From: Oculatellaceae cyanobacterium bins.114
Lineage (GTDB): Bacteria > Cyanobacteriota > Cyanobacteriia > Elainellales > Elainellaceae
Direction: 5' to 3'
Length of the DNA: 51,185 bases
Assembly (NCBI GenBank): GCA_033764315.1
Contig: JANRJA010000179.1
Span: forward strand, 1-51,185
The position numbers were made by a program, and so were the translations under genes. Below are positions 29,008 to 50,969 of this stretch, piece by piece; position 1 is the first letter of the stretch, and each line of letters begins with the position of its first letter. The notes under the pieces are model-generated. The model was not told where the DNA came from and made no database searches. It worked only from the letters and a program-made list of their open reading frames with translations.

Positions 29008-29044
29008 AGGACGAAAAAGAAAATGAGAAATAAGTGCTGAAGAC

Positions 29045-30313: not shown

Positions 30314-30373
30314 AGGAAAGAACAACTAAGATGAGATGGACTGACTAAGAACCGCAGATAAATTCACTGACCA

Positions 30374-31435: not shown

Positions 31436-31547
31436 GATTACCTTTCTGGCTGAATATCGTAATGTATTCAGTGTGATAACTAAATGTAAGCGATCGCGTT
31501 TTTTGAAGTGTTTGATTACTGTATACGTTTTAATCAGAGGAGCTTAA

Positions 31548-32714: not shown

Positions 32715-32717
32715 AAA

Positions 32718-34169: not shown

Positions 34170-35559
34170 GATTGACAAAACTCCGATCGAAGACAGCACA
34201 GAGTTTGCGAGTCATTTCACGAGCGGTGTAGGGTTGAAAAGCATCCCAATTCGTTTGGGGTTGCATTTCAGGTGAAATAGCCAGCGTTTGAATGTGGGGT
34301 AGTAGCGATCGCACCAGATGATCTGTACCTGTGGTTGTGTTAAACGTAATGACCTGTCCTGCTTGACAATGGCGCATAATATCCACGACTGAACTCTGCT
34401 CATGCACCACTGCCAAAATTGGTTTTTGTGCCAGAATGCAGGGATAGAGTTTTGATGCGGTGTAACTCGGATCATCAGAACCAATCAGTAAAATAGCATC
34501 GCTATCCACTAACACCTGCTGTGCTTCAAAGTAGGGGATGCGAGAGGGATGTTCTGTCACGAGATCAGCAATGCCACAATCATGGGCGATCGGCTCAATC
34601 GTTTTAACAGTCAAGTGAGGAGGAGCATAGCTGGTACCGACAAAATGCAGGTGAATGATCTGCCTCAGGTTAGGGTGACACTCACACACTTGTCGAATGG
34701 CCAAGAACAAAGCTCGTAGGGCGATCGCCATATCACTGCCACCTCGACCCACATAGACCCAATGACGTTTTCCATCCTTGGGGTTGAATAGCGTTTGCTG
34801 AATGTTGAGGCTAGCAAGCTGCCGAAAGTCTGATTCGGGTGCGCCAAATGGCAACACTGTAAATTGTTCATCTTGGAGCCAGGGATAGTGACTTTGCAAC
34901 GTTCTGGGGTATGCCGGAGAAACACTGATAACCTGATCGACCCGTCGCATTGCTCGCGGTTCACAAATGTTTGCCAACAGTTGTGTCATACGATATTTCA
35001 GCTGTCCTCCGGGTGGTTGAGTGCCCAATTTATGTTGGTAATCACTGCGCCAGGGATCTTGAAAATCAAGCACATAGGGAATACCAAAACGGTGCAGCCA
35101 ACGCCGTCCTAATGTCATTACTGGAAAGATCGTTGTTGAGAAAAAGACTAAATCAAACCCTCCCTGTGCTAATAAGCGATCGCCTGCTTTAGCAAAATAG
35201 GGCAAACATCGCCAACCCACATTACCTAACCCAAATCGCTGTGTGTAACGGGCTGGCAATGCCGGGGTGCGAGTCACAGGAACATGAGCAGGCAAGAGCT
35301 TTGCTAGATTGGGATCTTGGGGATGGGGCACTTGGTCAGGGTGCACTGCCAAAATGTGTGTTTCCCAGCCAAACTCTTGTAAATAGGGCAACGCTGTCCG
35401 AATGCGCTGGTGATCCGGTGCATTGACAGGTGGAAAGTGGGGACTGACCACCAAAACACGGTGTAAAGTTTTGGGCGATCGCCCAAAATCCGTTTGATGT
35501 GGGTTAAGAGATTTCATCCCTGAGTGGATTGTGGGGTACCATTTTACTATCAGAGACAA
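34162..35559 (-). CDS. GT-B fold glycosyltransferase (GT4-like)
   Basis: VSPHFPP, LDFQDPW and YTASKLYP motifs; true start may be 35517. Confidence 0.82.
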   Translation of the reverse strand: MSLIVKWYPTIHSGMKSLNPHQTDFGRSPKTLHRVLVVSPHFPPVNAPDHQRIRTALPYLQEFGWETHILAVHPDQVPHPQDPNLAKLLPAHVPVTRTPALPARYTQRFGLGNVGWRCLPYFAKAGDRLLAQGGFDLVFFSTTIFPVMTLGRRWLHRFGIPYVLDFQDPWRSDYQHKLGTQPPGGQLKYRMTQLLANICEPRAMRRVDQVISVSPAYPRTLQSHYPWLQDEQFTVLPFGAPESDFRQLASLNIQQTLFNPKDGKRHWVYVGRGGSDMAIALRALFLAIRQVCECHPNLRQIIHLHFVGTSYAPPHLTVKTIEPIAHDCGIADLVTEHPSRIPYFEAQQVLVDSDAILLIGSDDPSYTASKLYPCILAQKPILAVVHEQSSVVDIMRHCQAGQVITFNTTTGTDHLVRSLLPHIQTLAISPEMQPQTNWDAFQPYTAREMTRKLCAVFDRSFVNHG

Positions 35560-35587
35560 GCGTTTGCGATCGCGTATACGCCATTGT

Positions 35588-36631
35588 TCAATTTAATCGG
35601 TTGTCAATTAAGGTTTGATACAAGTTCTCATATTGAGTGGCGATCGCCTCAGCCGAAAAATGGTGTTCAACCCGTTGACGACAGTGCAACCGATCGATCG
35701 TAGAAAGTTGGGCGATCGCATCTACGGCCTGATCCACTGAATTCACCCAAAATCCATCAATCTTATCTCGCACAATTTCAGGCACTGCTCCTCTGGGGCA
35801 AGCAATTACCGGAGTGCCACAGGCGAGGGATTCAGCAAATACAATACCAAACGGCTCCTCCCATTCGATCGGTACAATCATCGCGGCTGCCTGACCTAAA
35901 AGCTGATTCTTTTGCACGTCATCAACGGGACCAACATACTCAATGCCGTCTTGGTTGAGATAGGGTGCAATTTCGCTTTGCCAATATGCCTCACCCTCAG
36001 GACTGGTAACTCGATTGCCCGCAATTAATAACCGCCTTCCGGCTTTGCGAGCAGCGGCGATCGCTGTGTGAACGCCTTTAATGCGTTCCAGGCGACTGAG
36101 AAACACGAGAGGTGCATCCATTGCCACGGTTGGCTGAACGGTGTACTTGTCTAATTCCACAAAATTGTAGATGGTTTGCCAGTGTCCTCCTGCGACTTGA
36201 CCGGCTCGACTAATATGCTGACTACATCCCGCAAAAACCAGAGAACTTCCTGCCATCCGGGCTGCCCACTGCACCGGTCGAGGAGTGGGTTGCCGCCCGT
36301 AGGACATAACCTTGGGCAAAGAAGACGACAGCAGGGGCAATAAATAAATCAACCGCGAGAAACTGTGGATGACATCGGGTTGAAACTGCTTGACGGCTTG
36401 CCACAGCGCGATCGTATTTCGTACCGTATGTTGTTTTCGTTGTGACTCCAGCCCAGGTAGGGAAAAGAACCGATCAACCGGAGAGGTAGACTCGGGGTGG
36501 GCAACCAATCCGACTGTATGACCTTTGGATTGCAACAAAACCGCCAGGGTATCCACTAACCGCTGCACCCCTCCATAGAGCGGAGGGGGAACGGGAATTT
36601 CAGGGTCAGCCGTGAGTAAAATACGCATCAC
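35588..36631 (-). CDS. Glycosyltransferase family 4
   Basis: VPPPLYGG, SRLERIKG, EEPFGIVFAESLACGTP. Confidence 0.93.
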   Translation of the reverse strand: MMRILLTADPEIPVPPPLYGGVQRLVDTLAVLLQSKGHTVGLVAHPESTSPVDRFFSLPGLESQRKQHTVRNTIALWQAVKQFQPDVIHSFSRLIYLLPLLSSSLPKVMSYGRQPTPRPVQWAARMAGSSLVFAGCSQHISRAGQVAGGHWQTIYNFVELDKYTVQPTVAMDAPLVFLSRLERIKGVHTAIAAARKAGRRLLIAGNRVTSPEGEAYWQSEIAPYLNQDGIEYVGPVDDVQKNQLLGQAAAMIVPIEWEEPFGIVFAESLACGTPVIACPRGAVPEIVRDKIDGFWVNSVDQAVDAIAQLSTIDRLHCRQRVEHHFSAEAIATQYENLYQTLIDNRLN

Positions 36632-37845
36632 AGTTCCTTTGCCAATGCTAATTGAGTGATATGCCGTAATTGATGGTGTTGTTTTTCCCAGTTATAGATT
36701 TCCTGAGCGGCTTGTTGAGCGATCGCTTTTGCCGTTGAGAGTTTCACCGGATCAGACAACAGATAATTGATGGCGGCAGCCAGTTCCACAGCATCTCCAG
36801 ACGGCACGAGGGCACCGATCGCTGGATATTGAGACAACACTTCTCGCTGTCCAGCGGTATCAGTTGCCACGATCGCCAGCCCTGCCTGGAGATACTGAAA
36901 TAGTTTGTTAGTAATTGTCAAATTGCGGCTGGGTGGACTGGTTTGCTCTAACGCTAAACCAATATCATGCTCGGCAATGCAATGGTGCAATTGGTCAGCA
37001 GGTACGGTTGGATGCAAAAATACACGCGATCGCCAGTCCAGGGGGATAAGTGACTCCAACCAAGTTTGGGTTGCAGCAGAACAAGTTCCCCGCAAATGCA
37101 ATTCCACAGGATATTGAATCAGAGGAAGAGCTTGAAACAAAGTCTCTAGACCGCGTCCTTTACCAATCGTTTGAGAAAACCAGTGCAGTGATGGCAAGGG
37201 TTTAGAGGGCACAACCGCTGGAAATTTTGTTTGAGGAAACACATTGTAAATCACCGTAGGAGTAGAAGCCTGGTAGACCTGCGCTAGAGCCTTTGCTAGA
37301 GCGTGAGAGGTGGTCAGGCAATAGGTACACCGTTGGATCAGGCGTTCTTCTAACGCTTTAATCCGCTGCACAGGACGGATAGACAAGGCTTCGGGTAACA
37401 AATCCTGGGAGAACCAATCCTCAAAATCGACTCCTACTCGAAATCCCTGTTGCATTAAGCGATCGCCCACCCATAATCCTGCTTCTGAGTGAACGATTGT
37501 TAGATCAGCTTTTTCCTGTAATGCAGCCTGCAACATAGCTTTGGCTCCATAGCCTAATAATGCAGGCGTAAATTGTCCTATTTTTTGAAATATTAGACGC
37601 GCTAAACGAGCTTGGAGCCTGACCCCCAATCGGCTCAATCGTCCTGGTTGAAAATCCAGCACGGGCTGGAAACGGTAAGGCTGGTGTGCCATCAATTGGC
37701 GATCGCGCTCCACCAGGGTTGGATCAAACCAAACACCCCGGACAATGACATCATGCCCTTCCTGCGCCAGGGTGAGAGCCTCCTTTTGAGGACGTGGTGC
37801 AGTACAGAGGTGTGCCCCAATTAAAATCAAGATTTTAGCCATCAC
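36628..37845 (-). CDS. GT-B fold glycosyltransferase (GT4-like)
   Basis: GKGRGLE, NKLFQYLQAGL, YNWE. Confidence 0.85.
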   Translation of the reverse strand: MMAKILILIGAHLCTAPRPQKEALTLAQEGHDVIVRGVWFDPTLVERDRQLMAHQPYRFQPVLDFQPGRLSRLGVRLQARLARLIFQKIGQFTPALLGYGAKAMLQAALQEKADLTIVHSEAGLWVGDRLMQQGFRVGVDFEDWFSQDLLPEALSIRPVQRIKALEERLIQRCTYCLTTSHALAKALAQVYQASTPTVIYNVFPQTKFPAVVPSKPLPSLHWFSQTIGKGRGLETLFQALPLIQYPVELHLRGTCSAATQTWLESLIPLDWRSRVFLHPTVPADQLHHCIAEHDIGLALEQTSPPSRNLTITNKLFQYLQAGLAIVATDTAGQREVLSQYPAIGALVPSGDAVELAAAINYLLSDPVKLSTAKAIAQQAAQEIYNWEKQHHQLRHITQLALAKEL

Positions 37846-38809
37846 TTTGTCTCATCTGTTGCACCAAGTCCACATACTGTTGGGCTGATTTTTCTAGAGT
37901 CAAATTCTCTAAAACATAGTCTCTGGGAACAAACCCAGATTGTCGATCTAAGAAGGCATCTAACTGCTCCGCGAACTCTTCTACAGTGGCAAATTTAAGA
38001 CCGCAGCGATCGTCCCAATATGGCACCGAACTGACCCCCGCAAACTGAACCCGTTCTGGAAAATACATGGGGTCTTGCCAAAAGCCTCCCCGATCCCAGA
38101 CAAGAATGGGTACGTTACAGGATAAAGCTTGTTGGTAGGCGATTCCCTGCGTCTCATGTTCACACAGGAAGATCATGGCTCGGCTTTTTTGCAGCAGTGT
38201 ATGGAATTCTGCTTCTTCATAGGCTCCATAGCGGAGAGTCACCACCTTTAAGCCCAATTGTTGTAGACGAAAATGAATGGGGGTGATCAATTCAGATTCA
38301 TATTTGTCACGACACCAGCGCACCTTGTCGTATACCAAAATATCAATTTCTTTTTCAGGATTAGGAGTCCAGAGATCTGTATCAATCCCAACGGGCCAAG
38401 CTTTAATGCGATCGCCCCAATACGGTTGCCACAACTGTCGTACCCATTCTCCAGGCACCACTATCTGCTTTACAGGCAAACGCTGCATCAACTGGGGGTC
38501 ATCGGTAGGGTGGGAAAAAATGGCTGGGCCTAACAATATCGGATGAGTCCAGGAGCGTTGTAGCAGGTGATCTTTACCCAGCACACAGGCGATCTCCTGG
38601 GGATCGTGTTGCAAAGAGCGGTAGTCATTCACTCGATAGGGAATCTTGAGACGGTCTAACCCAGCGCAGAGATTGAGAAACACACGCTGATGTCCGCTAA
38701 TTCGAGCTGGCCCCCGGATCAAGCGACGAATCCAACGACGAGGATAGCGATCGCCCAGCAACCAGCGATCAGGATCGGGTTCAGCGTAAAAAAGGTGAAG
38801 GGGGTTCAT
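37835..38809 (-). CDS. Putative glycosyltransferase (GT-B)
   Basis: WPVGIDT, HETQGIAYQQALSCNVP (degenerate EX7E). Confidence 0.75.
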   Translation of the reverse strand: MNPLHLFYAEPDPDRWLLGDRYPRRWIRRLIRGPARISGHQRVFLNLCAGLDRLKIPYRVNDYRSLQHDPQEIACVLGKDHLLQRSWTHPILLGPAIFSHPTDDPQLMQRLPVKQIVVPGEWVRQLWQPYWGDRIKAWPVGIDTDLWTPNPEKEIDILVYDKVRWCRDKYESELITPIHFRLQQLGLKVVTLRYGAYEEAEFHTLLQKSRAMIFLCEHETQGIAYQQALSCNVPILVWDRGGFWQDPMYFPERVQFAGVSSVPYWDDRCGLKFATVEEFAEQLDAFLDRQSGFVPRDYVLENLTLEKSAQQYVDLVQQMRQSDG

Positions 38810-38829
38810 GGTGCCATCCTAATCGTGAA

Positions 38830-39801
38830 TTACGTTGGAAAGTGCAGCAGGGTGGACGACGTAACTGCCTGAAAGGGACGGAGTAAGGTTCGACGATAAC
38901 GGAGAATCTGTTCTGTCATCGTAAACCCCAGAAATCGGTAGAACTTGCCCAAAAGCCCAGACTCTGGAGGTTGAAACTCAGGAGCCAGACAGTAAATCCA
39001 ATCCACAACAGCCTGCGCTTCGGCCGGATGGGTATACGCAATCCAGTGGGCTAAAGACCAGAGGACGTTACAGGCCGCTCTAGCTCGTCGTGGGGTCAAG
39101 TCTCCCCGATCTGACAATTCTCCTAAAATCTTTTGATATAGAGTCAAATGTTGCCAGTTAGCAACCACCGATTGTAGCCCGCGATAATTTGCCTGCATTT
39201 GCTGCTCATGCCTCACCCAATATCCGGCACAACCTGGAACATGAGTAAGTTGAGGATTTAACAAACCGATTTCCAGGAGAAACAGGCGATCGTCACGATA
39301 TGCAAAATCGGGGCGATGGGGCACCTGCTCTACCAACTCGCGCCGAAACAACATTCCCAAAAAGTGGCTACCATCCCCCTCACCCAATTGCACAGCCAAA
39401 AAGTCATCCCATAGGGGCAACTCCGGATGCTCAATGATGTGCCCCGTTGCTTTCTCCAAAGCATTGACCTGAGAATAGACTAGATCAGCATTTGTGGCGA
39501 TCGCAGCATTAAACTGACGGTCAATCGTTCCAGGACATAACAGATCATCAGAATCCAGAATCCGAATATAGCGTCCTTGAGCCAACTGCATTGCTCGGTT
39601 TACTCCCCAAGGCTTACCCTGGTGAGATTGATACAACGAGACCACATCTGGTCGGGTTTGCAGCCATTCCCAGGTGCCATCGGTGCTGCCATCATCCACC
39701 ACAATAATTTCTGTTTGGCACTGCGTTGGACGACAAGACGCGATCGCCTCTGGTAAACACCAGAGTCTGTTATAGGTTGGAATGATGACAGAAACATCCA
39801 T
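38830..39801 (-). CDS. Glycosyltransferase family 2
   Basis: VSVIIPTYN, VDDGSTD, LDSDD. Confidence 0.94.
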   Translation of the reverse strand: MDVSVIIPTYNRLWCLPEAIASCRPTQCQTEIIVVDDGSTDGTWEWLQTRPDVVSLYQSHQGKPWGVNRAMQLAQGRYIRILDSDDLLCPGTIDRQFNAAIATNADLVYSQVNALEKATGHIIEHPELPLWDDFLAVQLGEGDGSHFLGMLFRRELVEQVPHRPDFAYRDDRLFLLEIGLLNPQLTHVPGCAGYWVRHEQQMQANYRGLQSVVANWQHLTLYQKILGELSDRGDLTPRRARAACNVLWSLAHWIAYTHPAEAQAVVDWIYCLAPEFQPPESGLLGKFYRFLGFTMTEQILRYRRTLLRPFQAVTSSTLLHFPT

Positions 39802-39932
39802 AAGCTTGGCAGAATTGTAAGAGTGATATAGGTTTGCCTGGTTAGTAAGAACAGTAAGTATAGAGACGATATTCCAGAGGTCTAGCCTTTTACTCTGTCT
39901 TCATTTCTAGTTTTCATAACCAATGTTTGCGA

Positions 39933-40901
39933 TCATGTTTTTGATGACGCATAACAACTCATTTTTGGCTGTATGAGTGTGTTAATCTTTGCTTGACAAC
40001 GTTGCCATATAAACTGCAATTGAACTTGCCAACAACTCCAAGCCGTACGTTTCAAATAGTGAAAAAATAAATATTTTTCTGGGTGTTGAAATCCGGGAGT
40101 CCAGGGTTTACCACTTTCCACAAAATGAATGATATAGGGTTGGGTCAGCAGTTGTTCATAGACAAATTGATTGTAAGGACTGTCTTGCCAGGAAGCATAA
40201 CGATGTAAGGTGCTGGCTCGGTTCCATTGCGGGTTAAGATCTCCCCAGTGACCCGCAAACATAGCATTCAATCCATCTTGATCATGCCAGCGAACATAGT
40301 GAGGATTGTCTCGAATATAGGCGATCGTGCGTTGGGCAATCTTGGTTCGTCGCCACTGTTCTAAATTGATCACCAAAACACCCGCATTAAAGTATCCCGT
40401 ATCAGATGGAATTCCTAGTTCCTGATAATTTAAGAGTCCATGCTTAGAGGAAACGATTTGAGTATTGATGTCTCGAACGGCTAGAGCAAAATAATCTCCC
40501 ACAGGCTGATTCCACAAATCAGCCAGATTCCCCTGAACAATCAAATCACTGTCCAGGTAAATTACTTTTGTGATCGAGTGGGGTAAAAGTTCAGGAATTA
40601 ACAAGCGATAATAAGTGGCACTCGTGAGATGACCACTCACATGCAGAGACTGGACTTGAGAACCAGGTGTCAACCAGGTCAATTCAGCTTGAGAACCACA
40701 GGTTTGCTCAAGCCGTCGTCGATTAACAGGTGAAATTCCCCCATCAATCACAAAAAGTTGGATCGGATAGGGGTGTTTTAGATTCGCTAGAGCTGAAGCT
40801 ACCGTTACACCCAACCCCATTGCGTAGTTATCATCAGCTGCACAAACTAAGACAATCGGATCTTGATCTGGATGGGGCCGTTTTGAGTGAACTTGCAGCA
40901 T
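39933..40901 (-). CDS. Glycosyltransferase family 8
   Basis: AADDNY, YYRLLIP, IYLDSD, FNAGV, DQDGLN, IIHF..GKPW; start uncertain (40901 or 40955). Confidence 0.93.
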   Translation of the reverse strand: MLQVHSKRPHPDQDPIVLVCAADDNYAMGLGVTVASALANLKHPYPIQLFVIDGGISPVNRRRLEQTCGSQAELTWLTPGSQVQSLHVSGHLTSATYYRLLIPELLPHSITKVIYLDSDLIVQGNLADLWNQPVGDYFALAVRDINTQIVSSKHGLLNYQELGIPSDTGYFNAGVLVINLEQWRRTKIAQRTIAYIRDNPHYVRWHDQDGLNAMFAGHWGDLNPQWNRASTLHRYASWQDSPYNQFVYEQLLTQPYIIHFVESGKPWTPGFQHPEKYLFFHYLKRTAWSCWQVQLQFIWQRCQAKINTLIQPKMSCYASSKT

Positions 40902-41085
40902 GGTATTGCGATTGATAGACAACAATGAACAGGAAAAATGGATTATGTAGGTCAATAACTGATTTGGTCAAAGAAGTGCGAGTGTCTCCCTCGCGGGCAT
41001 CTTGCCCGGACTACGGAATGGCTGAATTATTTCCTTAACTCTCATGTAACAGAGCCGCGATCGCTTGATGAAGCTGAGTGGCTAC

Positions 41086-42072
41086 TTAGTGGCTGGAAAT
41101 ACGGTTGTGATACGCTAGGCTTAGCCGTTTAGCTACTTTCCAACCGAACAGAGACCGTAGCAATTTTGCTCGCCAACCTCCCGCAGCAGGCAGATTAGGT
41201 TTAACTCCAAGCGATTTAATATGAGACAGTGCGGCTTCCACAATCGTTAAATGGGTTGGATACGCTTGAACGGCCAGTTCCATATAGCAGCGAGCAATGG
41301 CTCTTCGGGCCTGAAGCGATCGCGTGTGCTGAAACAAGTGACAAGCTTTGAGATCGATCGCCCGCAATGCAGAACTCTGATGAGTCAATGAGTTAGATCC
41401 GCTGAGACTTTGAGCATTTCGATACTTACGATAGTAGGTACACCCTATGGGACTGTAGCAAAGACCTGTACTATTTAAGACAATTCGCGCAAAATATTCG
41501 CCATCATCATCTAAAGACAGGGATGCATCCCAAAAACCAACGGCTTCTGAGACAGAGCGAGGAATCAACCATGCGGCAGGATGAACCATTGCTCCTTGAC
41601 CATCACCCCCTAACAATTGCACCAACCACTCAACAGGATGTTTACTATCAGCAAAAAACCGTCCGCCCGTTTCTCGCTTACCCTGTTGCGGGTCTTCACC
41701 ATCCCAAAAATGGACGGTACTACAGAGAGATACAGTTTTAGCAGGGTGTTGTTGCAACAATTGTAGTTGTGCCTCAATCTTGTCAGGACTCAACAGATCA
41801 TCTGCATCGAGATATTGAATCCACTCTCCCTGAGCTATCTCAAGGGCACGATTGCGGGCACTACTGGCTCCTTGATTAGCTTGCTGAATCACCTGAACTT
41901 TTGTAGACACAAAGCTATGGACAATCTCCAGGCTGCGATCGCAAGAGCCATCATCCACTACAATCACTTCCAGGTTTTGCCAGGTCTGATTTAGTGCAGA
42001 CTTCAGGGTAGTAACCAGCCATCGCTCAGCGTTATAGCAGGGGATCAGAATCGATACTAATGGTGTTGTCAT
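41086..42072 (-). CDS. Glycosyltransferase family 2
   Basis: VSILIPCYN, VDDGS, YLDADD, DDGEY. Confidence 0.93.
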   Translation of the reverse strand: MTTPLVSILIPCYNAERWLVTTLKSALNQTWQNLEVIVVDDGSCDRSLEIVHSFVSTKVQVIQQANQGASSARNRALEIAQGEWIQYLDADDLLSPDKIEAQLQLLQQHPAKTVSLCSTVHFWDGEDPQQGKRETGGRFFADSKHPVEWLVQLLGGDGQGAMVHPAAWLIPRSVSEAVGFWDASLSLDDDGEYFARIVLNSTGLCYSPIGCTYYRKYRNAQSLSGSNSLTHQSSALRAIDLKACHLFQHTRSLQARRAIARCYMELAVQAYPTHLTIVEAALSHIKSLGVKPNLPAAGGWRAKLLRSLFGWKVAKRLSLAYHNRISSH

Positions 42073-42089
42073 GTTCGGCTTCACTCCTC

Positions 42090-43043
42090 TCATTCCAAAT
42101 GCATGACATGCTGCCAGCCATAGCGAAAATACCAGGGCTTAGAGTCGGCCACGTAATGGTGAAGAACCGCTTTAGGTTGTTGAGCTTCTTGGCGCGTAGG
42201 AAGAACAATATAGTCGCTGGCAGAGGCGATTGCCCTGGGAGCGCGGGCCATGAGCATGGCAATCATGGCCTGCTCCTGGTAGTAGTTGGTGCATTCCCGC
42301 TCAATCAGGGTTTTGCACCAATATTCCAGTTCGTCCCAGTCTAGGGAATCACTCTGTAAACCACAAATACCCACATTAATCTGATTCGGAATGGGCGTTC
42401 CTGCAAGTTCACGCATTAAGGCAGCGGAATATCCATAAGCATTGTCTATATCGACCATATGGCAAGGGGATTGGGGCGATCGCAACCACTCCAGCAAGAA
42501 AGTGGGTTTGCGAAAAAACACCATATCTGAGTCCAACACGAGTTTCCAACCCGATGAGTTGATGTGAATATCCGTCAGTTTTCGCAGGTTGGGATAATTT
42601 AGGCGACGCGATCGCAACCAGGGAAATCGGGTAGATGGCAAATGCTGATCTAACTGCTGGTTGATAGTGTCATAACTGACGATGCGAACATCTGGAAAAA
42701 TGCGCGAAATGGCATTTCGATGAATGGCCTCTAACGTTCCGTCATCATAGATCACAGGACGCAAATAGACTTGTGCTTGCTGGATCATGGAATAAGCACA
42801 AAAACAGGTTTGATACCAAAAACGGGCACCACTCAAAAAGTAAATCTCAAAGGGGCGATCGCCCGGATCGAGGGTGATGGGTGGCAACTGATAGGCCGCT
42901 TGTTCCATCTGAATGCGTGCCTGCTCGTCGATTGCTCGTCGAACGGGATCTCGCTGGATGTATTTACGGAGCAGTCCTTTTGGCACGTAATAGCCCCAAT
43001 ATAGGGCACGACCGAGATGAAGCCTTTGGGTCAGGGAAGTCAT
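42090..43043 (-). CDS. Putative GT-A fold glycosyltransferase
   Basis: YDDG, LRKLTD, VLDSDM, QEQA and HHYV motifs. Confidence 0.7.
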   Translation of the reverse strand: MTSLTQRLHLGRALYWGYYVPKGLLRKYIQRDPVRRAIDEQARIQMEQAAYQLPPITLDPGDRPFEIYFLSGARFWYQTCFCAYSMIQQAQVYLRPVIYDDGTLEAIHRNAISRIFPDVRIVSYDTINQQLDQHLPSTRFPWLRSRRLNYPNLRKLTDIHINSSGWKLVLDSDMVFFRKPTFLLEWLRSPQSPCHMVDIDNAYGYSAALMRELAGTPIPNQINVGICGLQSDSLDWDELEYWCKTLIERECTNYYQEQAMIAMLMARAPRAIASASDYIVLPTRQEAQQPKAVLHHYVADSKPWYFRYGWQHVMHLE

Positions 43044-43993
43044 GCCATTCTCCTGTGCAATTTAGCCAGTCCTTCAAAGGTGCCACAAGCCCCACGCCAA
43101 CGAATGTAGGATGCTGCATCTTTCCAGGCTTGATAGGTGATAAACGCTTTGATCTGTCGGGGTAGCACCGTCCAGGGAGCAATCGCTTGCCAGATCTGAA
43201 TGCCATGCACGGCCAACACCTGCACCCAAGAACAACAGGTTGCGCGGTTGAGGCGTGCCAAATAGCCTTGTTGAAGGCGAGTTTCTGGAATCAGGTGGGT
43301 CAGTTGCAGTTGGGGAAAGTAACCCACATCCCATCCAGCATTTAGCAGCGTCAGAATGATGTCGTTGTCTTCACCAGAGGTTAACTGCTTACCCGTGCGT
43401 CCAAAGGATAGATGCGTGCGATCGCTTGAAGCCCGCTGAACATAGGATAAAAACGCTTGTCGTCGCAAACTTAAGCCAATGCCCGCAGGGGCAAACTCAG
43501 GGTAGGGTTGATGCATCACGTTGCCCAACCGTTCTGAACAGATCAAAGGGGCATCACCAAAATCGCGTAATGCCAAAATGGTTGAAAATTCTTGAATCCA
43601 GGGAGCAGGCTCTCGTTCAAATTGAGGCACCGATCGTCCGGCGATCGCTCCTAATCCACCATACTCTGCAAAGATTTGAGAGACATGAGCAAGATAGCGT
43701 GAATCTAACACATTGTCGTCATCTACATAGACTAAGAGATTGCCCTGTGACTCTTGATAGCCACGTAATCGAGCATTGGTTAAGCCCAGTTGTTTTTCGT
43801 AAACGATACGGGCTTGAGGATGCCAGGTTAGATCCAAAAGAGTTGCAAGCGACTGTTGACTGGCATTGTCAATCACAAGTAGTTCCCAATGGGTGAACGC
43901 TAATGTTTGCGATCGCAACGCATCTAAAACGGTGATCAGATAGTCAATTCGGGGATTGTGAGTGCAGATAATGACACTAATTTCAGGTGACAT
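43040..43993 (-). CDS. Glycosyltransferase family 2
   Basis: ISVIICTHNP, IDNAS, VDDDN, SGED. Confidence 0.93.
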   Translation of the reverse strand: MSPEISVIICTHNPRIDYLITVLDALRSQTLAFTHWELLVIDNASQQSLATLLDLTWHPQARIVYEKQLGLTNARLRGYQESQGNLLVYVDDDNVLDSRYLAHVSQIFAEYGGLGAIAGRSVPQFEREPAPWIQEFSTILALRDFGDAPLICSERLGNVMHQPYPEFAPAGIGLSLRRQAFLSYVQRASSDRTHLSFGRTGKQLTSGEDNDIILTLLNAGWDVGYFPQLQLTHLIPETRLQQGYLARLNRATCCSWVQVLAVHGIQIWQAIAPWTVLPRQIKAFITYQAWKDAASYIRWRGACGTFEGLAKLHRRMA

Positions 43994-44084
43994 AGAGATA
44001 ACAGAAATACAAGTTTGTTCTAGATTTCGTAGACGGGTTATGGTACTGCTAATGCATCTTTTTATTTCGATGCGTTACGCAAAC

Positions 44085-46634
44085 CTATTGCAAAAATTGA
44101 CGTAACCGTTGACGCAACACAGCCCAATTAATGGGTTTCGTAATGTAGTCCGTTGCTCCGGCAGCAAAAGCTTTTTCGACCGATTCAGTATCTTCCAATG
44201 CTGTGATCATCAGAATGGGAGGACGATTTTGAGTGATGACTGTTGTTCCAGCAATTGCTTCTAACACGCTCTCTGCATCCGCTTCCAAGGAGGGGGGTTC
44301 AAGCGATTGGAGGTGAGCACAACAAGCAAAACCGTCCATTTCAGGCATCATGGCATCCAGTAAAATCAAGTCGGGATGCAGTTCATGATACAAGGCGATC
44401 GCTTGTTGACCATTCTTGGCTTCTACAACACGATAACCTTCTTTAGAAATCGCAATTTTGAGGATAGTTCGCATTGAGCGATCATCATCCACAATTAAAA
44501 CCAACGGGGTATGAGCGGATTCTAAATCCTGTTTTGATTGAGAAAAGTTAATATCTAAATCCACAAAATTGACCTGTTCTTGATGCTTTAACAAACCTGC
44601 GATCGCGTGAGCATTTAGGGGTTTAGAAAACAAATAACCTTGCCCATAACTAAACCCTAGTTCTTTAACCCGTCGCAGTTGTTCTGGGGTTTCAATGCCT
44701 TCAGCAATCGGCTCCATACCCAAATCACGAGCAAGAATTAAAACTGTTTCAATCAGTTTCACCGTGTCATTATCCACCCCAATCCGGCTCGTTAAAGTGC
44801 GATCGATTTTTAAGATACCCACCGGAAAATGGTGGAGATAATCTAACGCCTGGTAGCTGACTCCAAAGTCATCAATGCACACTTGAATGCCACGAGTTTG
44901 TAGTTGAAAGAGAATTGCAGTTGTTGCAGCCGCATCTTCCATCACCATGCGGTCTTTAATTTCTAACACCAAAGAACGACCTGTCAATTGATAACGTTCT
45001 AGTAATTGATCGATATGGGGAATTAAATCAGGATGGAAAAACTGTTGGCTTGACAGATTAATACACACTCTGAAAACCGAGTCAGGGAAACAATCTTGCC
45101 ATTGTTGAAGTTGCCGAGTTACTTCGTCTAACAACCACCACCCTAGCAGCACAACCAATCCTGTTTCTTCTGCCGCTGCCATAAACTCAGCCGGACAAAT
45201 TAAGCCACGCATGGGGTGATGCCAGCGCACCAATGCTTCAAACGCAGTGACTTTACCCGTTGCCAGCGATACAATCGGCTGATAATACACTTCAAACTGC
45301 TGTTGATCGACCGCATGGTATAGATCGGCATGCTTTAACACAGCTCGCTGCAAAATTTTGAAATATTGTTTGCCGATGCGTTGCGGGGTGAAATAGTCAT
45401 GGATATAACGGTGTCCGGCTTTGCCAAGTCGTTCTGTCATATCTGGATCTTTTGCTAAATATCGAATAAAACCTGCCAATCCTTTACTGTCACCGTTATT
45501 AAATGCAGCACCACAATTAGCGTCAGACACGAGCGATCGCAAATAGGAGTGTTTTTCGCAAATAACGGCGACGGGTCGCCCTGACGACAACGCCGAATAA
45601 AACTTACTGGGAGCCACTAAGCCTTCCATACCGACATCTACACTGACCAGTGAGAGGTCACATGCCGTTAGAGATTGGGGTAATAGGGCTTTATCTTGAT
45701 AGGGCAAAAACTGGCAATTGGTCAGCTGCATTTCTCGAACGCGATCGACACAGGCATCTCGTTTAGGCCCAGCCCCAATAAAGACAAACCGCACCGATTC
45801 ATGGCGCAACTCCCACGCCGCATTCAAGATGGTATCCATATCGTGACACCGTCCCATATTGCCCGAATAGAGAACGGTAAAAGGTTCCACTAGATTGTGG
45901 GTGTGGGCAAACAGGTTGTCTTGCTTCATCAAAGGCTTAATCCAGTTTGGATCAGCCCAGTTGTGAATCACAGTGATCTTGTCAGCCACTTCCGGTACTT
46001 TCGCCACAATCCGATCTTTCATCGTCTGGCAGGGCACGATAATTGACTCAGCCGCATTCCACACCAAGCGATTGACCCAATCCCAAAAGCGTACCAAAGC
46101 GTGCTGTTTAGCAACCACCTTCAATTCAACAGCCACTTCTGGATAGAGGTCATACACCAAGCAAGCGTAGGGCGTTTGAAACAGGAGTTTGATGATGTAT
46201 CCTACCACTTGCAAAAACGGAGGTTCACTCGTAAACAGTAAAATGTCTCCTCGATACTCCCGTTTTAAGAGATGCAGAATGGTGTGCCAACAAAATGCCA
46301 GACTGCTCAGGGTGCGACCTGCCATTTTGCGAGACCGAGAGCGTAATAGGTGCGATCGCTGGACTCGCACCTGTCCCATCATTTCTACCTCTGGAGCATG
46401 CTCATGCTCGGTGTCAAACGCATAACTGGGTTGTCCTGTGAAGACCTGCACATCCATATTTTGGTGTGACAACTGTTGTGCTAGCTCATCGACAAATTGC
46501 CCCGTTGCTGCAAAATCAGGCGGGTAGAATTGAGTAACAATGGAGATCTGCACGTTAGATTGCAGCAGATTGTGTTCTGTTGAAGGGGTTGTCGTAAAAA
46601 ATTTGGTAAGGTAGGACTTCAAACGTTGGAGCAT
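44085..46634 (-). CDS. GT4 (WcaI-like) glycosyltransferase - EAL domain - receiver domain fusion
   Basis: QFYPPD, YSGNMG, APSKFY (GT4); YYQP, FEALVRW, INLS, DDFG, KIDR, EGIE, QGY (EAL); IVDDD, LLDAMMP, TKP (REC); single 849-aa frame. Confidence 0.9.
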   Translation of the reverse strand: MLQRLKSYLTKFFTTTPSTEHNLLQSNVQISIVTQFYPPDFAATGQFVDELAQQLSHQNMDVQVFTGQPSYAFDTEHEHAPEVEMMGQVRVQRSHLLRSRSRKMAGRTLSSLAFCWHTILHLLKREYRGDILLFTSEPPFLQVVGYIIKLLFQTPYACLVYDLYPEVAVELKVVAKQHALVRFWDWVNRLVWNAAESIIVPCQTMKDRIVAKVPEVADKITVIHNWADPNWIKPLMKQDNLFAHTHNLVEPFTVLYSGNMGRCHDMDTILNAAWELRHESVRFVFIGAGPKRDACVDRVREMQLTNCQFLPYQDKALLPQSLTACDLSLVSVDVGMEGLVAPSKFYSALSSGRPVAVICEKHSYLRSLVSDANCGAAFNNGDSKGLAGFIRYLAKDPDMTERLGKAGHRYIHDYFTPQRIGKQYFKILQRAVLKHADLYHAVDQQQFEVYYQPIVSLATGKVTAFEALVRWHHPMRGLICPAEFMAAAEETGLVVLLGWWLLDEVTRQLQQWQDCFPDSVFRVCINLSSQQFFHPDLIPHIDQLLERYQLTGRSLVLEIKDRMVMEDAAATTAILFQLQTRGIQVCIDDFGVSYQALDYLHHFPVGILKIDRTLTSRIGVDNDTVKLIETVLILARDLGMEPIAEGIETPEQLRRVKELGFSYGQGYLFSKPLNAHAIAGLLKHQEQVNFVDLDINFSQSKQDLESAHTPLVLIVDDDRSMRTILKIAISKEGYRVVEAKNGQQAIALYHELHPDLILLDAMMPEMDGFACCAHLQSLEPPSLEADAESVLEAIAGTTVITQNRPPILMITALEDTESVEKAFAAGATDYITKPINWAVLRQRLRQFLQ

Positions 46635-46665
46635 GATTAATTCGCTTCAGTGTTGATGACAGGGG

Positions 46666-47466
46666 TTACTCTGGGATGATTTCCAGTGTTGCGTTGAGGG
46701 TGTTGCGATCGCGCTTTCGTTGCGTCTGCGTTGACGTATATTGTCTGTATAATTTCTTGCTTAACAAGAATGAAAAAATCAACAATCCCAGTGTGGTGTT
46801 GATATCAAACGGGACAGGAACCACCTCTGTTGTAGAGATTGGCGTTCCGGGGGTTATGCCAGGAGTCGTACCAGGAGTCGTACCGGGTGTAAGACTGGGC
46901 GGTGAGATTAGAGTTGAAGTAGGAGGAAACAACGTCTCAGGGGTTTCAGAGGTGGTCGTTGTTTGGGGCGGGTCAGAATTGGGATAAGCTGTGGAAAACA
47001 GGGGGCTACCTGAACTGGTAGAGGAGATAGGATTACTAGGACTTATCATCTGAATCACAGTGATCGTTGACTGCCCAGAAGAGGTAGTCAGGGTAGACCC
47101 ATCTGAGTCAATCTCACCGTTAATCCCAGAGAATGTGACATTTCCTCCTGTTTCTACGGGCAGAGTCGTGGTTGTGATTGAAGATTCAGGTGTGTAGCTT
47201 CCCCCTACTTGAGACAAAGTTAAGTCTGGGCTGGCGATCGCCGAAATTTGTACTGGAGACTCATACAATTGACCTTCACCGGGTAGGACAATCGGAGGTT
47301 GAGCACTATCTTGAAAATTGAGTTGGCTTTTATCGACCAACCACAAATTACTAGCGGTCAAGTTAACAGAAACTTGCTCTTGAACGCCCAAATCAGAATA
47401 TTGTGTCAAGTCAAACCAGCTTGATCCTGGAATATAACTTTCAATGGGACCAACTGATAAATCCAT
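46666..47466 (-). CDS. PFE-CTERM-like (VPFD) sorted surface protein, Ser/Thr/Pro-rich
   Basis: C-terminal VPVPFDINTTLGLLIFSFLL followed by a basic tail; TPGT repeats; N-terminus paralogous to the next gene. Confidence 0.75.
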   Translation of the reverse strand: MDLSVGPIESYIPGSSWFDLTQYSDLGVQEQVSVNLTASNLWLVDKSQLNFQDSAQPPIVLPGEGQLYESPVQISAIASPDLTLSQVGGSYTPESSITTTTLPVETGGNVTFSGINGEIDSDGSTLTTSSGQSTITVIQMISPSNPISSTSSGSPLFSTAYPNSDPPQTTTTSETPETLFPPTSTLISPPSLTPGTTPGTTPGITPGTPISTTEVVPVPFDINTTLGLLIFSFLLSKKLYRQYTSTQTQRKRDRNTLNATLEIIPE

Positions 47467-47566
47467 AGGAGTTAAAGAAGAATGAGAAAGAACAATTAGC
47501 CCTATTTGTCGTAGCGCATCCAGCCCAAAATTAAGTTGAATGGACTACTACGATCGCTCGACTTTG

Positions 47567-48343
47567 TTAATCAACCTGCTTTGATCGAGTTTGTTTAGAC
47601 ACGATTTTCTTGCCTACTATTAAGGTGGCGATCGCCAGTCCTAAGGCTGAGTTGAGTTCAAAAGGAACAGAAACAGGCTGTGCCTCCCTTAAGTTAACAG
47701 AGGCATCTTGACCCAAATTCGCTTGAGTCAAGATAGCTCGAAAGTTATCAGGCCCAACATCTAATGCTAAAATGCCGTCGTTGAAGTCATTGTCGCTACT
47801 CCGACCCCAAATATCTTCATACCCCAAAATAATCAGAGGACGAGTAGCGGATGGATCGGCATAGGCTGTCCAAAAAACAGGACTATTGGGATTATAGACA
47901 CTGACCGGATTTAAAGATGGATCAGTACTGAGGGGTGTATTTTTGGGTTGAGATACACCGTTTGGAATCACTGAAAGATTGAGCTGTGTACCCGCTTGAA
48001 TAGTCGAGATTTGCACCCAATCTCCTAACTTCAACGGGGCATTGGCACTGGGAAGAATACTATTAGAACCGGAGAGGTTTTGAAAAACAGTAGCTCCCCC
48101 ATTGGTAGCACCTGTGGCTGTTAATTTGACAGGTGATTGATACCCGGCCCCTTCATTTAGAAAGGCAATTCGAGGTGCATAGGTATTGTTGAGAAACAGA
48201 TGGCTGCTATCAATTAACCAGAGATTGCTAGAACTCAGATTAATTGAAACCCGTTCTTGAACAGCAAGATTTTGATAACGACTGAGATCAAACCAGGTTT
48301 GACCTGGGGCATAGTTTTGAATGGAGCCAACAGTAATTGTCAT
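47567..48343 (-). CDS. DUF4114-like domain protein with PFE-CTERM sorting signal
   Basis: GYEDIWGRSSDNDFND motif; C-terminal VPFELNSALGLAIATLIVGKK. Confidence 0.8.
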   Translation of the reverse strand: MTITVGSIQNYAPGQTWFDLSRYQNLAVQERVSINLSSSNLWLIDSSHLFLNNTYAPRIAFLNEGAGYQSPVKLTATGATNGGATVFQNLSGSNSILPSANAPLKLGDWVQISTIQAGTQLNLSVIPNGVSQPKNTPLSTDPSLNPVSVYNPNSPVFWTAYADPSATRPLIILGYEDIWGRSSDNDFNDGILALDVGPDNFRAILTQANLGQDASVNLREAQPVSVPFELNSALGLAIATLIVGKKIVSKQTRSKQVD

Positions 48344-48382
48344 CGCAGTTATAGAAAAAAGAGGGACTATACAACCAAGTTT

Positions 48383-49009
48383 TTATCGAAATGTGGCTGC
48401 CCATGATTGAGAACGCAAACTGGCTCCGGTTCGTTGGGTAAACAACCAGACAATCGACCGACCGACATCTCGCAAAATATGAACCTTGGACTCAGGAGGA
48501 ACACGGGATGGAACAATCACAGGAGTCGTTATGATGCCTCGGCTGCCAAAGACAATGGCCGCGATCGCCCTGGCACGCGCCATATGAAAATCAGAGGTAA
48601 TTAGATAAACATGGTGTATTTGAAGGCGATCGAACTCATTAACTAAGGTGGTGAAATTGGTGACGGTATCGGTTGCCCGAAAATCAAAGGTGATTCGCCT
48701 TAAATCGACCCCTACCAGTGCAAAAAAAGGTTGCGCCTTGGCAGGATTCATGCCCGATGAAATCCAAATGTTTAAATCTGGATGAGATTGGGCAAATTCT
48801 GCGGTAAATGCCTCCCGTGCTGGACGACCCCCTAAAGTCAAAATCGCCTGAGGTTGAGGAAATTGAATACTGGTCAGTACCAGTCGCATTGGAATATAAC
48901 TCAACAACACGATCAGCAATGTCACTAAGGCAAGCTTATAAGGCGTGTAACGACGATAATATCGCCACCGAGAAAAGTTAGAGATCGATCGCAAAGACTG
49001 AGACACCAT
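48383..49009 (-). CDS. YdcF/DUF218 family protein
   Basis: ILTLGG, ATDTVTNF, ITSDFHMARA; N-terminal TM helix. Confidence 0.9.
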   Translation of the reverse strand: MVSQSLRSISNFSRWRYYRRYTPYKLALVTLLIVLLSYIPMRLVLTSIQFPQPQAILTLGGRPAREAFTAEFAQSHPDLNIWISSGMNPAKAQPFFALVGVDLRRITFDFRATDTVTNFTTLVNEFDRLQIHHVYLITSDFHMARARAIAAIVFGSRGIITTPVIVPSRVPPESKVHILRDVGRSIVWLFTQRTGASLRSQSWAATFR

Positions 49010-49293
49010 CGTTGATTTTGGCTGAGATAGGAAACTGTTTTATTGCAGCTTAATCTCAGTGTCAAAAATAGATGATTGCGATCGCGTTTGTCTAAAAAAA
49101 GACTACTGTATATCTTTTGAGTTCTATTTATAGTGTGTTTATCTACCTGTAGAATGCCGTCAGCAAAGCGTAATGCAGAGGAAATTGCTAATTTACTCAA
49201 CATCTGTATAGGTAATGCTACACATTCATAAAATAAACCCGATAACAAACACTAGCTATTTAAGCTAAGAGCAATTCTACAGCACTTACCGTC

Positions 49294-50145
49294 ATGACTC
49301 TTTCCAGCGATAGCTCACCCGATCCTCAATTGTCAACTTTCACCAATACTCCGCTACAACGCAACCTTGCCATCTTTCGCAGCATTGGTTATGGATTATT
49401 AGGATTGTCATTTGTCGATTTATTATACGTGCTGCTGCCTCCAGACTTTACCAATCCCGTGTGGGAATATCAGACTATTGGCGATCTGGTTCGATTGATT
49501 CCAGTGCCTTTACTAGCTTTGCTTCTGGTGTTTTATGGAGAGTCCATCACCCGCAAAACAATCGAGCATCGCGTTTTGTGGTTACTGTCCTGGTTAACGC
49601 TACTGATTGGAATTATCTTCTTCTTACTCATTCCATTAACCATCACTGATACGGTTCGCATTAGCCGATTTAATAACGAGCAGATCAGCAACCAGGTCAA
49701 CCAACAAAAATTACAACTAGATGCCACTCGGCAACAGTTAGAACAAGCAACTCCTGAACAATTGCAAAGCCTGATTCCAGCTCCTGATGAAAATGGCAAT
49801 TTGCCAGATGCTCCTGCTACACCAGACCAAGCAAAATCTCAAGTTTTAGCCAATTTGCAACAAGCGCAAGAACAAGCTGAAAGTCAGGCGACTCAGGCAC
49901 GCAATAATTTGCGCCAAAACTTGCTAAAAAACACACTGAAGCTCACTGTAGAGCTATTGATTGGTGGGTTCACTTATCTCTACCTCTGGTCAGTCACCCG
50001 TTGGGCGCGTCACTTTAAGGTTCAAAAAAACTATAGCCAAGATTTTTCTCGTCCGTCCCGATCCAGTGCAGCCCAACGTTGGCTCCAGGGTCTAACCCGC
50101 TCTATGCAGCGATCGCTCCGCTCAGTTCGGCGTCAACGAGGATAA
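49294..50145 (+). CDS. HpsJ-like exosortase-associated membrane protein
   Basis: Three TM helices with PPDFTNPVWE, a Gln-rich coiled coil and a fourth TM helix; directly upstream of the exosortase. Confidence 0.75.
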   Translation: MTLSSDSSPDPQLSTFTNTPLQRNLAIFRSIGYGLLGLSFVDLLYVLLPPDFTNPVWEYQTIGDLVRLIPVPLLALLLVFYGESITRKTIEHRVLWLLSWLTLLIGIIFFLLIPLTITDTVRISRFNNEQISNQVNQQKLQLDATRQQLEQATPEQLQSLIPAPDENGNLPDAPATPDQAKSQVLANLQQAQEQAESQATQARNNLRQNLLKNTLKLTVELLIGGFTYLYLWSVTRWARHFKVQKNYSQDFSRPSRSSAAQRWLQGLTRSMQRSLRSVRRQRG

Positions 50146-50147
50146 TC

Positions 50148-50969
50148 ATGGTTGTATATCAGGGCAAAGAGTCCCAGGTCTGGCTGAGTATCGTTGGAGT
50201 GGGAATCGTTGCCCTACACTTGGTCTTGACATGGAGACTATTAGGACAAACGGATCAACTCGTCTTGAATCTACTGCTTTGGGGGGCGATCGCATCGCTG
50301 CTCTGGCAACGCAGGTCCACTCTAATTCTAAAGAGCGATCGCTGGGCAACTCTAATCGGTTTGATGTTGTTTACCCTGCTGTTGTGCAAAAGTTTGTCTC
50401 TCTTTTGGTTTGAGTCAGCATTTGTACGAGTTTTTCCAGGATTGGCGACACTCGGTTGGGCATTGCTAGCCTCTGGATTTCGGCTTCAACAATATGGGCG
50501 TGAGTTTTGCATTGTTTTCACCTTAATGTTGCCCCAAGGTTTATTGGCAGAGATCATGCATCAACAGATCGGCTCTTATGTGCAAGTGTGGATTGCTCAA
50601 ATTGCCACTTTTTTGCTGCATTATGGCGGTGTTGATGTCGTGCGTCATGGGGTAGAAGTGGTATTAGGGCAAAAGGCAGTTGCGGTTGAATACGCTTGTA
50701 CAGGAATGCCTATGTTGATTTTACTTTTACAGCTTTCAGTTGTTTTGCTTCTCGTATTTCCTATCTCTCTATGGAAGCAAGTTTTATTGGTTGTGATTGC
50801 CATCGTCACTGCTTTTAGCCTCAGCAGTATTCGAGTGGCAGTTATGGCATTAGTTGTTAATCATCCCTCCACCTTTGATTACTGGCATGGAGTTCAGGGA
50901 TCGCAGATCTTTACCACCCTGGCGATTGGATTATTTATTTTAAGTCACCATTATTTTGTTGAATCATGA
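50148..50969 (+). CDS. crtA: Cyanoexosortase A
   Basis: About 8 TM helices; Cys-Arg-His triad in YACTG, SIRV and DYWHG. Confidence 0.82.
   Translation: MVVYQGKESQVWLSIVGVGIVALHLVLTWRLLGQTDQLVLNLLLWGAIASLLWQRRSTLILKSDRWATLIGLMLFTLLLCKSLSLFWFESAFVRVFPGLATLGWALLASGFRLQQYGREFCIVFTLMLPQGLLAEIMHQQIGSYVQVWIAQIATFLLHYGGVDVVRHGVEVVLGQKAVAVEYACTGMPMLILLLQLSVVLLLVFPISLWKQVLLVVIAIVTAFSLSSIRVAVMALVVNHPSTFDYWHGVQGSQIFTTLAIGLFILSHHYFVES

Follow-up and report, generated by a model that had tools for sequence, protein, structure and literature searches.

In E. coli NfrB, a glycosyltransferase (GT) and a domain that senses cyclic di-GMP (c-di-GMP) are parts of one polypeptide, which makes a surface glycan (PMC8669469; here and below, what is attributed to a cited source refers to passages of it). 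In BcsA and in XcsA of Thermosynechococcus, the latter a cyanobacterial precedent, c-di-GMP acts on a glycan-making enzyme via a fused PilZ domain (PMC10124867), and in the PdeB-GtsAB system of Lactobacillus acidophilus a degenerate, c-di-GMP-binding EAL domain is encoded with a glycosyltransferase and was proposed to be an allosteric regulator (PMC6123363). Catalytically impaired EAL domains also serve as c-di-GMP receptors in FimX and LapD (PMC12943098, PMC12448109), and RocR and PvrR combine a receiver (REC) domain and an EAL domain in one chain. Each of these shares a feature with the gene described here, which lies at positions 44085-46634 of a 51,185-nucleotide stretch from Oculatellaceae cyanobacterium bins.114 (GCA_033764315.1, contig JANRJA010000179.1; the whole stretch is referred to as the window) and encodes a GT4-family glycosyltransferase fused to an EAL domain and a REC domain.

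According to reviews, the downstream targets of c-di-GMP in cyanobacteria are poorly known (PMC10124867, PMC12448109). In Leptolyngbya boryana, losing the cyclase Dgc2 turns on extracellular polysaccharide (EPS) secretion and gliding (bioRxiv 10.1101/2022.01.10.475764). A strain of this species, CZ1, encodes the fusion (cluster P0011), and the fusion family is therefore a concrete candidate c-di-GMP receptor in a genetically workable genus.

The explanation that we tentatively favor, giving it slightly less than an even chance, is that the fusion protein is a c-di-GMP-sensing, phosphorylation-tuned glycosyltransferase for an early step of a glycan that is made for, or displayed with, CrtA-sorted proteins. 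This model takes its architecture, family, residue-loss pattern, purifying selection, junction length and neighborhood from sequence, and what it proposes are ligand binding, allostery and its direction, the acceptor and the kinase. Judging from its family and neighbors, the WcaI-like GT would add an early sugar, plausibly fucose, to a lipid-linked glycan; WcaI transfers fucose to undecaprenyl diphosphate-glucose. It would serve a surface-glycan module in which cyanoexosortase A, with its PFE-CTERM proteins, is central. The EAL domain, once fused, would have turned into a sensor, with its c-di-GMP pocket kept and hydrolysis weak or absent; ligand occupancy would be relayed via a fixed-length helix to the GT-B hinge, and phosphorylation of REC by a histidine kinase would tune the EAL domain or the oligomeric state. 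Because loss of the cyclase turns EPS secretion on in L. boryana, c-di-GMP could inhibit the enzyme just as plausibly as activate it. If the model is true, the EAL domain would have become a regulator within the same chain as the biosynthetic enzyme that it controls, the family would offer a natural series between the near-intact window copy and fully degenerate EAL domains, and the fusion may let two signals control one cell-surface glycan-building step.

A GT4-EAL-REC fusion family in cyanobacteria

The original prediction, made from the DNA letters and translated frames, described a single 849-residue frame with GT4, EAL and REC domains, and this was borne out by the open reading frame, Pfam and NCBIfam. 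The features of the gene are as follows.

44085..46634, minus strand: GT4-EAL-REC fusion gene, one open frame, 849 aa
45339..46553, minus strand: WcaI-like GT4 (GT-B fold) domain, residues 28-432; Pfam, NCBIfam and structure match
45312..45425, minus strand: GT-EAL junction, G404-A441; final GT helix continuing into the first EAL helix
44589..45335, minus strand: EAL domain, residues 434-682; 8/8 catalytic positions, E-to-D at 561, loop 6 non-canonical
44892..44936, minus strand: family-specific EAL helix, D567-R581; conserved in the fusion family, candidate new interface
44847..44873, minus strand: loop 6, DDFGVSYQA (588-596)
44088..44507, minus strand: receiver domain, residues 710-849; D716, D717, D760, T811, K833; internal insertion of variable length

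Pfam placed a GT4 N-terminal domain at residues 45-230, a GT1/GT4 C-terminal domain at 249-408, EAL (PF00563) at 437-672 (E 8.5e-70) and REC (PF00072) from residue 712 (E 3.1e-27); REC forms the C-terminal end, and no output domain follows it. The GT has the two Rossmann domains of a GT-B enzyme, with Pfam GT4 models above cut-off. Its top NCBIfam match was the WcaI family NF007640 (135.8 bits over profile positions 3-405 of 411, below the cut-off of 276), against which an unfused relative scored 142.9 bits, and its nearest solved relative is remote (best E 2.4e-4). An AlphaFold2 model from the family alignment had all three domains folded (mean predicted local distance difference test score 88.3; predicted template modeling score 0.74). 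The modeled GT part (residues 27-435) resembles GT-B enzymes (Z 39.2, root-mean-square deviation 2.9, 380 residues aligned) and the modeled EAL part (residues 433-687) resembles EAL phosphodiesterases (BifA EAL: Z 35.3, root-mean-square deviation 1.6, 254 aligned), and no structure among the matches listed spans both parts. REC carries a low-confidence insertion of ~30 residues (about 780-803; window ~44225-44297), which the original prediction had not mentioned; its length varies among family members, the C772-T811 span being mostly 18-40 residues.

Among the best 120 relatives listed, 83 carry GT, EAL and REC Pfam domains. The family alignment consists of 82 full-length clusters; excluded from it were P0079 and P0084, which are short at the N-terminus, P0072 and P0083, which have no REC, and P0087, which has just EAL and REC. 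A search with the GT alone for long relatives yielded 85 proteins, and an EAL domain is present in 83. Relatives are encoded by 555 stretches of GTDB species genomes; the best 80 were kept for locus comparisons, and in these all three domains are spanned in 24 (24 other species genomes), with unfused GT relatives far commoner (56 of the best 80 loci). An assembly artefact or a strain-specific loss of a stop codon, which the original prediction had named as what would overturn it, has a practically negligible probability, being refuted by the 82 clusters, which are 40-89% identical to the window protein and include cultured strains and multi-megabase contigs, and by the 24 other species genomes.

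All named carriers are cyanobacteria, e.g. Alkalinema, Leptolyngbya, Nodosilinea, Elainella, Pantanalinema and Lyngbya confervoides. The spread is patchy: a junction-spanning match was found in 4 of 30 relatives of the source genome, including 3 of 18 from the same family, and in the single same-genus genome compared none was found with this query. The source genome also encodes an unfused GT paralogue (55% identity), which came from a phylum sample with at most four candidates scored per genome and misses left unused. Databases label the fusion proteins just "EAL domain-containing protein". Literature searches returned no description of GT4-EAL-REC, in agreement with the original statement that no characterized example was known; supplements and most subscription papers, which could list the protein, fell outside their scope. 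Word searches of census and review papers for mentions of glycosyltransferases found nothing relevant. The architecture is real, conserved, apparently uncharacterized and cyanobacterial.

In a tree of the GT domain, a branch with a Shimodaira-Hasegawa-like approximate likelihood ratio test (SH-aLRT) value of 99 parted 25 fused from 58 unfused rows (the 56 of the best 80 GTDB loci plus L081 and L083; L082 was dropped as a duplicate of L020); the root of this tree is unreliable, its outgroup being too distant for rooting (branch 6.4). In a tree of EAL domains, the 25 fused rows lay on one side and 10 ordinary EALs on the other (80/99), and subclades of the fused rows agreed between the two trees. 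These sequence comparisons fit one ancient fusion, then joint inheritance of the domains.

Conservation of pocket and catalytic positions in the EAL domain

The EAL motifs of the window copy, including the two departures from the canonical set, were all found as originally quoted: FEAL (E466), N526, LEIKD (E558, with the second E replaced by D561), DDFGVSYQA (588-596), K609, AEGIE (E645) and Q665. Over the 82 clusters, substrate-pocket positions were present as Q452 in 80, E466 in 80, R470 in 66 and N526 in 77, and catalytic positions as E558 in 66 (plus 12 with D), D588 in 60, D589 in 16, K609 in 48, E645 in 35 and Q665 in 70. Weighting into 28 groups gave the same pattern (Q452 0.95, E466 0.99, N526 0.89 and R470 0.74 vs D589 0.23, E645 0.44 and K609 0.57). 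All eight metal or catalytic positions that were scored (E, N, E, D, D, K, E and Q) are retained in 3/82, namely the window copy, P0002 and P0007. D589, K609 and E645 are jointly present in 4/82, and the canonical loop 6, DFG(T/A)GYSS, occurs in none; the window copy, with DFGVSYQA and LEIKD, thus lacks the loop 6 of a canonical phosphodiesterase. As a control, seven of the eight other EAL domains in the source genome hold all eight positions and six have DDFGTGYSS. A stand-alone degenerate EAL domain with 5/8 catalytic positions is also encoded in this genome (G000:C248:2538-3365, minus strand).

The losses are separate on the EAL tree, with three changes for D589, three for E645 and one for K609 (all outgroup rows scored canonical), and clades differ in the residues that they have lost: a nine-row group lacks K609 but has E645, and most of a 16-row clade shows the opposite. 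Ratios of nonsynonymous to synonymous substitution rates ranged over 0.06-0.17 for EAL, 0.01-0.13 for GT and 0.03-0.17 for REC (31 non-saturated, non-independent pairs, the window copy in none of them). On these comparisons, the EAL domain is decaying as an enzyme yet kept under purifying selection.

In described EAL enzymes, loop 6 is essential and the glutamate equivalent to E352/E703, the first of ExxE (E645 here), is required, and YQP and R179 (Q452 and R470 here) bind substrate (PMC12943098). Judging from its residues, the family EAL is probably impaired as an enzyme. The original suspicion of impairment in this protein held in that respect, with no canonical loop 6 in any of the 82; the window copy itself is among the least degenerate (8/8), so the dead-enzyme case comes from the relatives and not from the window sequence. 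We take E466, N526, E558 and D588 to be the first-metal ligands and D589 and E645 to be the second-metal ligands; on that reading, the family retains the substrate-holding site and drops the cleaving site. The window copy has the substrate-contact residues (YQP, ExLxR and N), and its sole EAL deviations are loop 6 and the E-to-D replacement.

Several observations weigh against a c-di-GMP-sensing enzyme. Q452, E466, R470, N526 and E/D558 occur all together in just 61/82, and R470 is substituted in 16/82, so the pocket erodes too in some clades. Retention of E466 and N526 could serve folding, and the window copy, to go by its 8/8 catalytic positions, may be catalytically active. P0081 and P0082, the two most distant members with altered REC, lack the REC motifs as well, and since the genome has an unfused paralogue, regulation of this GT step is not obligatory.

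An active EAL domain leads to a different explanation, in which, in this lineage if not more widely, REC governs a functional EAL phosphodiesterase. The domain would deplete c-di-GMP around the site of glycan synthesis or be a trigger enzyme, with control of the GT running via catalysis or lacking altogether. This explanation is quite unlikely and is most plausible for the window copy itself. The three members with complete catalytic sets fit it, as do the closest solved relatives of the fusion EAL, which are phosphodiesterases (37-38% identity). However, at least one of the eight positions is missing in 79/82, the three residues D589, K609 and E645 rarely occur together, and the loop 6 result runs the same way; phosphodiesterase activity would not explain retention of the fusion because it has been lost in most members.

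Coupling between the GT, EAL and REC domains

The G404-A441 junction has 38 residues in 82/82 clusters, and the EAL-REC span has 44-83. In the AlphaFold2 model, the last GT helix (417-433) and the first EAL helix (436-443) are almost contiguous, and a low-confidence linker (694-705) lies ahead of REC. Positions of the EAL domain that are fixed in the fusion family and variable in ordinary EALs of the same genome include D567 (82/82), A570 (79/82), R581 (78/82) and G660, and GT positions R102, R107, E137, S136, P290 and F345 are fixed in the family and different in most of the 58 unfused relatives. The GT motifs YDLYP, HNW, YSGNMGRCH and EGLVAPSKFY are nearly invariant in the family. Such family-specific invariant positions could form a GT-EAL interface or be the sign of a new acceptor.

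The domains might instead be joined yet uncoupled, with EAL-REC signaling to other proteins or localizing the enzyme and the GT constitutive. The variable, low-confidence EAL-REC linker would suit this arrangement, as would the commoner unfused relatives, which have the same core motifs; physical coupling is the better match to the invariant junction length, to the agreement between the GT and EAL trees and to purifying selection acting on all three domains, and we consider uncoupled domains very doubtful.

The REC phosphorylation set named in the original prediction (the DD pair, the phospho-acceptor D, T and K) is intact, as D716/D717, D760, T811 and K833. Over the 82 clusters, D716 is present in 78, D717 in 78, D760 in 80, T811 in 80 (T or S) and K833 in 78. 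A related stand-alone REC is encoded within 6/25 fused loci and 0/58 unfused loci, and a GAF-PAS hybrid kinase with Hpt lies near the gene in 4/25 fused and 0/58 unfused loci; neither adjoins the fusion in the window. A prediction of the complex between REC (706-849) and GT-EAL (28-690) scored 0.00 against a mark of 0.32, which says nothing either way. The window also encodes a hybrid kinase of 1864 aa (14902-20496, plus strand), 24 kb from the fusion, in which PAS and GAF domains accompany two kinase cores and two receivers; nothing ties this kinase to the REC domain.

These REC data bear on a further explanation, namely that the EAL domain is a ligand-blind pseudo-enzyme that, as an inflexible spacer or a platform for docking, transmits REC phosphorylation, or the signal of a partner protein, to the GT; the fusion would in effect be a response regulator with GT output. 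We consider this possible but rather unlikely. The functional positions of REC, such as D760 and K833, are better conserved than the EAL pocket, in which R470 is lost in 16/82; the conserved helix 567-581 is not part of the canonical catalytic set, and the stand-alone REC and hybrid kinase genes were found at fused loci alone. On the other hand, Q452, E466 and N526 persist in 77-80 of the 82 despite free drift of neighboring catalytic residues, and no such kinase stands beside the gene in the window.

The upstream CrtA and PFE-CTERM module

Upstream of the fusion gene, the window holds the following genes.

46666..47466, minus strand: Ser/Thr-rich (30%) PFE-CTERM protein; 20.5 bits vs cut-off 24 (NF050011); candidate glycan acceptor
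47567..48343, minus strand: DUF4114 PFE-CTERM protein; 17.9 bits vs cut-off 24 (NF050011)
48383..49009, minus strand: DUF218 (YdcF-like) protein; belongs to the conserved module
49294..50145, plus strand: HpsJ-like protein, cyanoexosortase A-associated; NF050013 above cut-off
50079..50969, plus strand: cyanoexosortase A, CrtA; TIGR03763 above cut-off

The conserved unit at fused loci, compared over flanks of at most 10 kb on contigs of which many are short, lies on this side: divergent crtA and hpsJ-like-A, DUF218, often a WcaF-like acetyltransferase, one or two PFE-CTERM genes and the fusion. Where 5 kb or more of upstream sequence was available (19 other fused loci), crtA is present in 15, hpsJ-like-A in 16, DUF218 in 14 and the WcaF-like gene in 10. 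A WcaF-like neighbor occurs at 12/25 fused vs 17/58 unfused loci, and the window module has none. With our own hidden Markov model (HMM), a PFE-CTERM tail was found within 3 kb upstream at 24/25 fused and 0/58 unfused loci (53 of the latter having 1.5 kb or more of upstream sequence), the 24/25 count being circular because the HMM was built from fused loci; a stricter PFE-CTERM pattern gave 17/25 and 0/58. Because all fused copies share one origin, these neighborhood counts are not independent and amount to one event.

In the source genome, the PFE-CTERM HMM matches the two window proteins alone. Two types of PFE-CTERM protein occur in the loci, one with DUF4114 and one rich in Ser/Thr (about 30%). 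Both window proteins have the C-terminal motif, transmembrane helix and basic tail of an exosortase target and are encoded alongside CrtA. An N-terminal hydrophobic signal was not found by a hydropathy screen, used without a signal-peptide predictor: the maximum over 12 residues within the first 56 aa was 0.82 and 0.95 in the window proteins, and at most 1.42 in 30/31 rows. A common conserved polar N-terminus is seen in the PFE-CTERM proteins of the window and related loci. Another exosortase is encoded on contig C8 of the source genome (completeness 91%). The fusion would be the first functional handle on this uncharacterized CrtA/PFE-CTERM module.

The downstream glycan cluster and other window genes

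The fusion sits within 18 co-oriented genes (49009 to 28177). The original prediction placed it at the head of a glycan cluster, which it does precede in the window:

28177..43993, minus strand: downstream glycan cluster, 14 genes, with GT2, GT8, GT4, a MraY/WecA-like initiating transferase and a candidate Wzy-like membrane protein; loosely linked to the fusion

This arrangement is not conserved. A homologue of the window downstream genes lies within three genes downstream in 1/23 other fused loci with downstream sequence, and the cluster was rejected as conserved context, the upstream module being conserved instead. Homologues of the first eight downstream genes are found near 7/24 other fused loci and 1/58 unfused loci. 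A promoter and terminator scan of 43500-49400 was at chance (9 vs 9.9 and 6 vs 5.2, respectively) and showed nothing resembling a terminator between the fusion and the gene that follows it.

Within the cluster, a 317-aa protein (42090-43043, minus strand) has no Pfam or NCBIfam match and has homologues near four other fused loci. A 493-aa multi-pass membrane protein (32718-34199, minus strand) likewise has no Pfam or NCBIfam match; its atlas look-alikes are from Cyanobacteria and Verrucomicrobia, one cluster having Wzy polymerase in 11% of members. Proteins of a NACHT-domain family that share a conserved N-terminus (clusters 24 and 69; the Pfam search covered cluster 24 only) are encoded a few genes downstream of the fusion in L002, L003, L004, L005, L008 and L022. 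Elsewhere in the window are a 1348-aa filamentous haemagglutinin-like (TPS domain) secreted protein (20926-24972, plus strand), whose 3' part is G-rich with higher GC, a tyrosine recombinase at the contig start (316-1191, plus strand), and fatty-acid-desaturase-like genes (2689-3684 and 11452-12507, both minus strand) that flank an SDR gene and an ABC transporter with two NMT1-like binding proteins.

A sister clade with an MshEN-like module

In L083 and 11 clusters (P0121-P0129, P0132 and P0133; of 68 matches), a GT of the unfused clade is joined to a C-terminal repeat module. The L083 copy (L083:5440-7203, minus strand) has several conserved GT motifs altered. All eight PDB sequences matched by the module are PilF or MshE, of the MshEN type (best E 2.3e-6); Pfam does not call the sister-clade tail as MshEN. 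A description of the tail as CdgR-like was dropped in view of these MshEN matches, CdgR belonging to the ComFB proteins. The same MshEN-like module is present on cyanobacterial WecB/TagA glycosyltransferases. It follows the published MshEN spacing but without the first Arg and the second LxxxLxxQ and, because these are missing, may not bind c-di-GMP, which again speaks against nucleotide sensing at this step. Taken as a sequence match, the module supports, without proving, the idea that early glycan steps in these cyanobacteria are nucleotide-signaling targets.

A broader reading extends the favored model to a group of c-di-GMP receptors not recognized before in cyanobacteria. Both c-di-GMP, acting via a repurposed EAL domain, and a phosphorelay would gate a single-step GT-B enzyme, which would license glycosylation of signal-peptide-less CrtA-sorted surface proteins, and the same step, given a c-di-GMP sensor twice (EAL and MshEN-like), would be a general checkpoint for surface glycan, mat formation or gliding. 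We consider this extension unlikely as a whole.

Comparison with known systems

The glycosyltransferase of NfrB presumably belongs to family GT2. NfrB further differs from the fusion in its MshEN sensor, for which binding was shown (PMC8669469), whereas the fusion has a candidate sensor EAL with REC on a GT4 enzyme and is known from sequence. BcsA and XcsA are processive synthases with PilZ (PMC10124867), and the fusion is a single-step GT-B enzyme with EAL and REC. PdeB-GtsAB consists of separate proteins, has a GT2 enzyme and no receiver domain, and is non-cyanobacterial (PMC6123363). The outputs of FimX and LapD are protein partners and not a fused enzyme, and both are distant in sequence (E 1e-15 to 1e-16 vs 1e-53 for active EALs). 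In RocR and PvrR the domain order is reversed (REC is C-terminal in the fusion), there is no GT, and the catalytic sets are canonical.

Regarding glycan synthesis, the fusion resembles the WcaI/WcaF step of colanic acid (NF007640, NF007797; PMC6801904) in its GT family and its frequent WcaF-like neighbor, and it differs in scoring below the WcaI cut-off, in its added signaling domains and in the window module without WcaF. Furthermore, the Nostoc punctiforme system of CrtB, PEP-CTERM proteins and hormogonium polysaccharide (HPS) is similar in that an exosortase and PEP-CTERM proteins are tied to extracellular polysaccharide and adhesion (bioRxiv 10.1101/2024.12.02.626408). The module described here has CrtA and PFE-CTERM proteins without the N-terminal signal described for PEP-CTERM targets, and neither CrtA nor PFE occurs in passages of that study. 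Altogether, by analogy, the fusion would work like NfrB, XcsA/BcsA or PdeB-GtsAB but belongs to none of them, as its sensor type, GT family and receiver differ.

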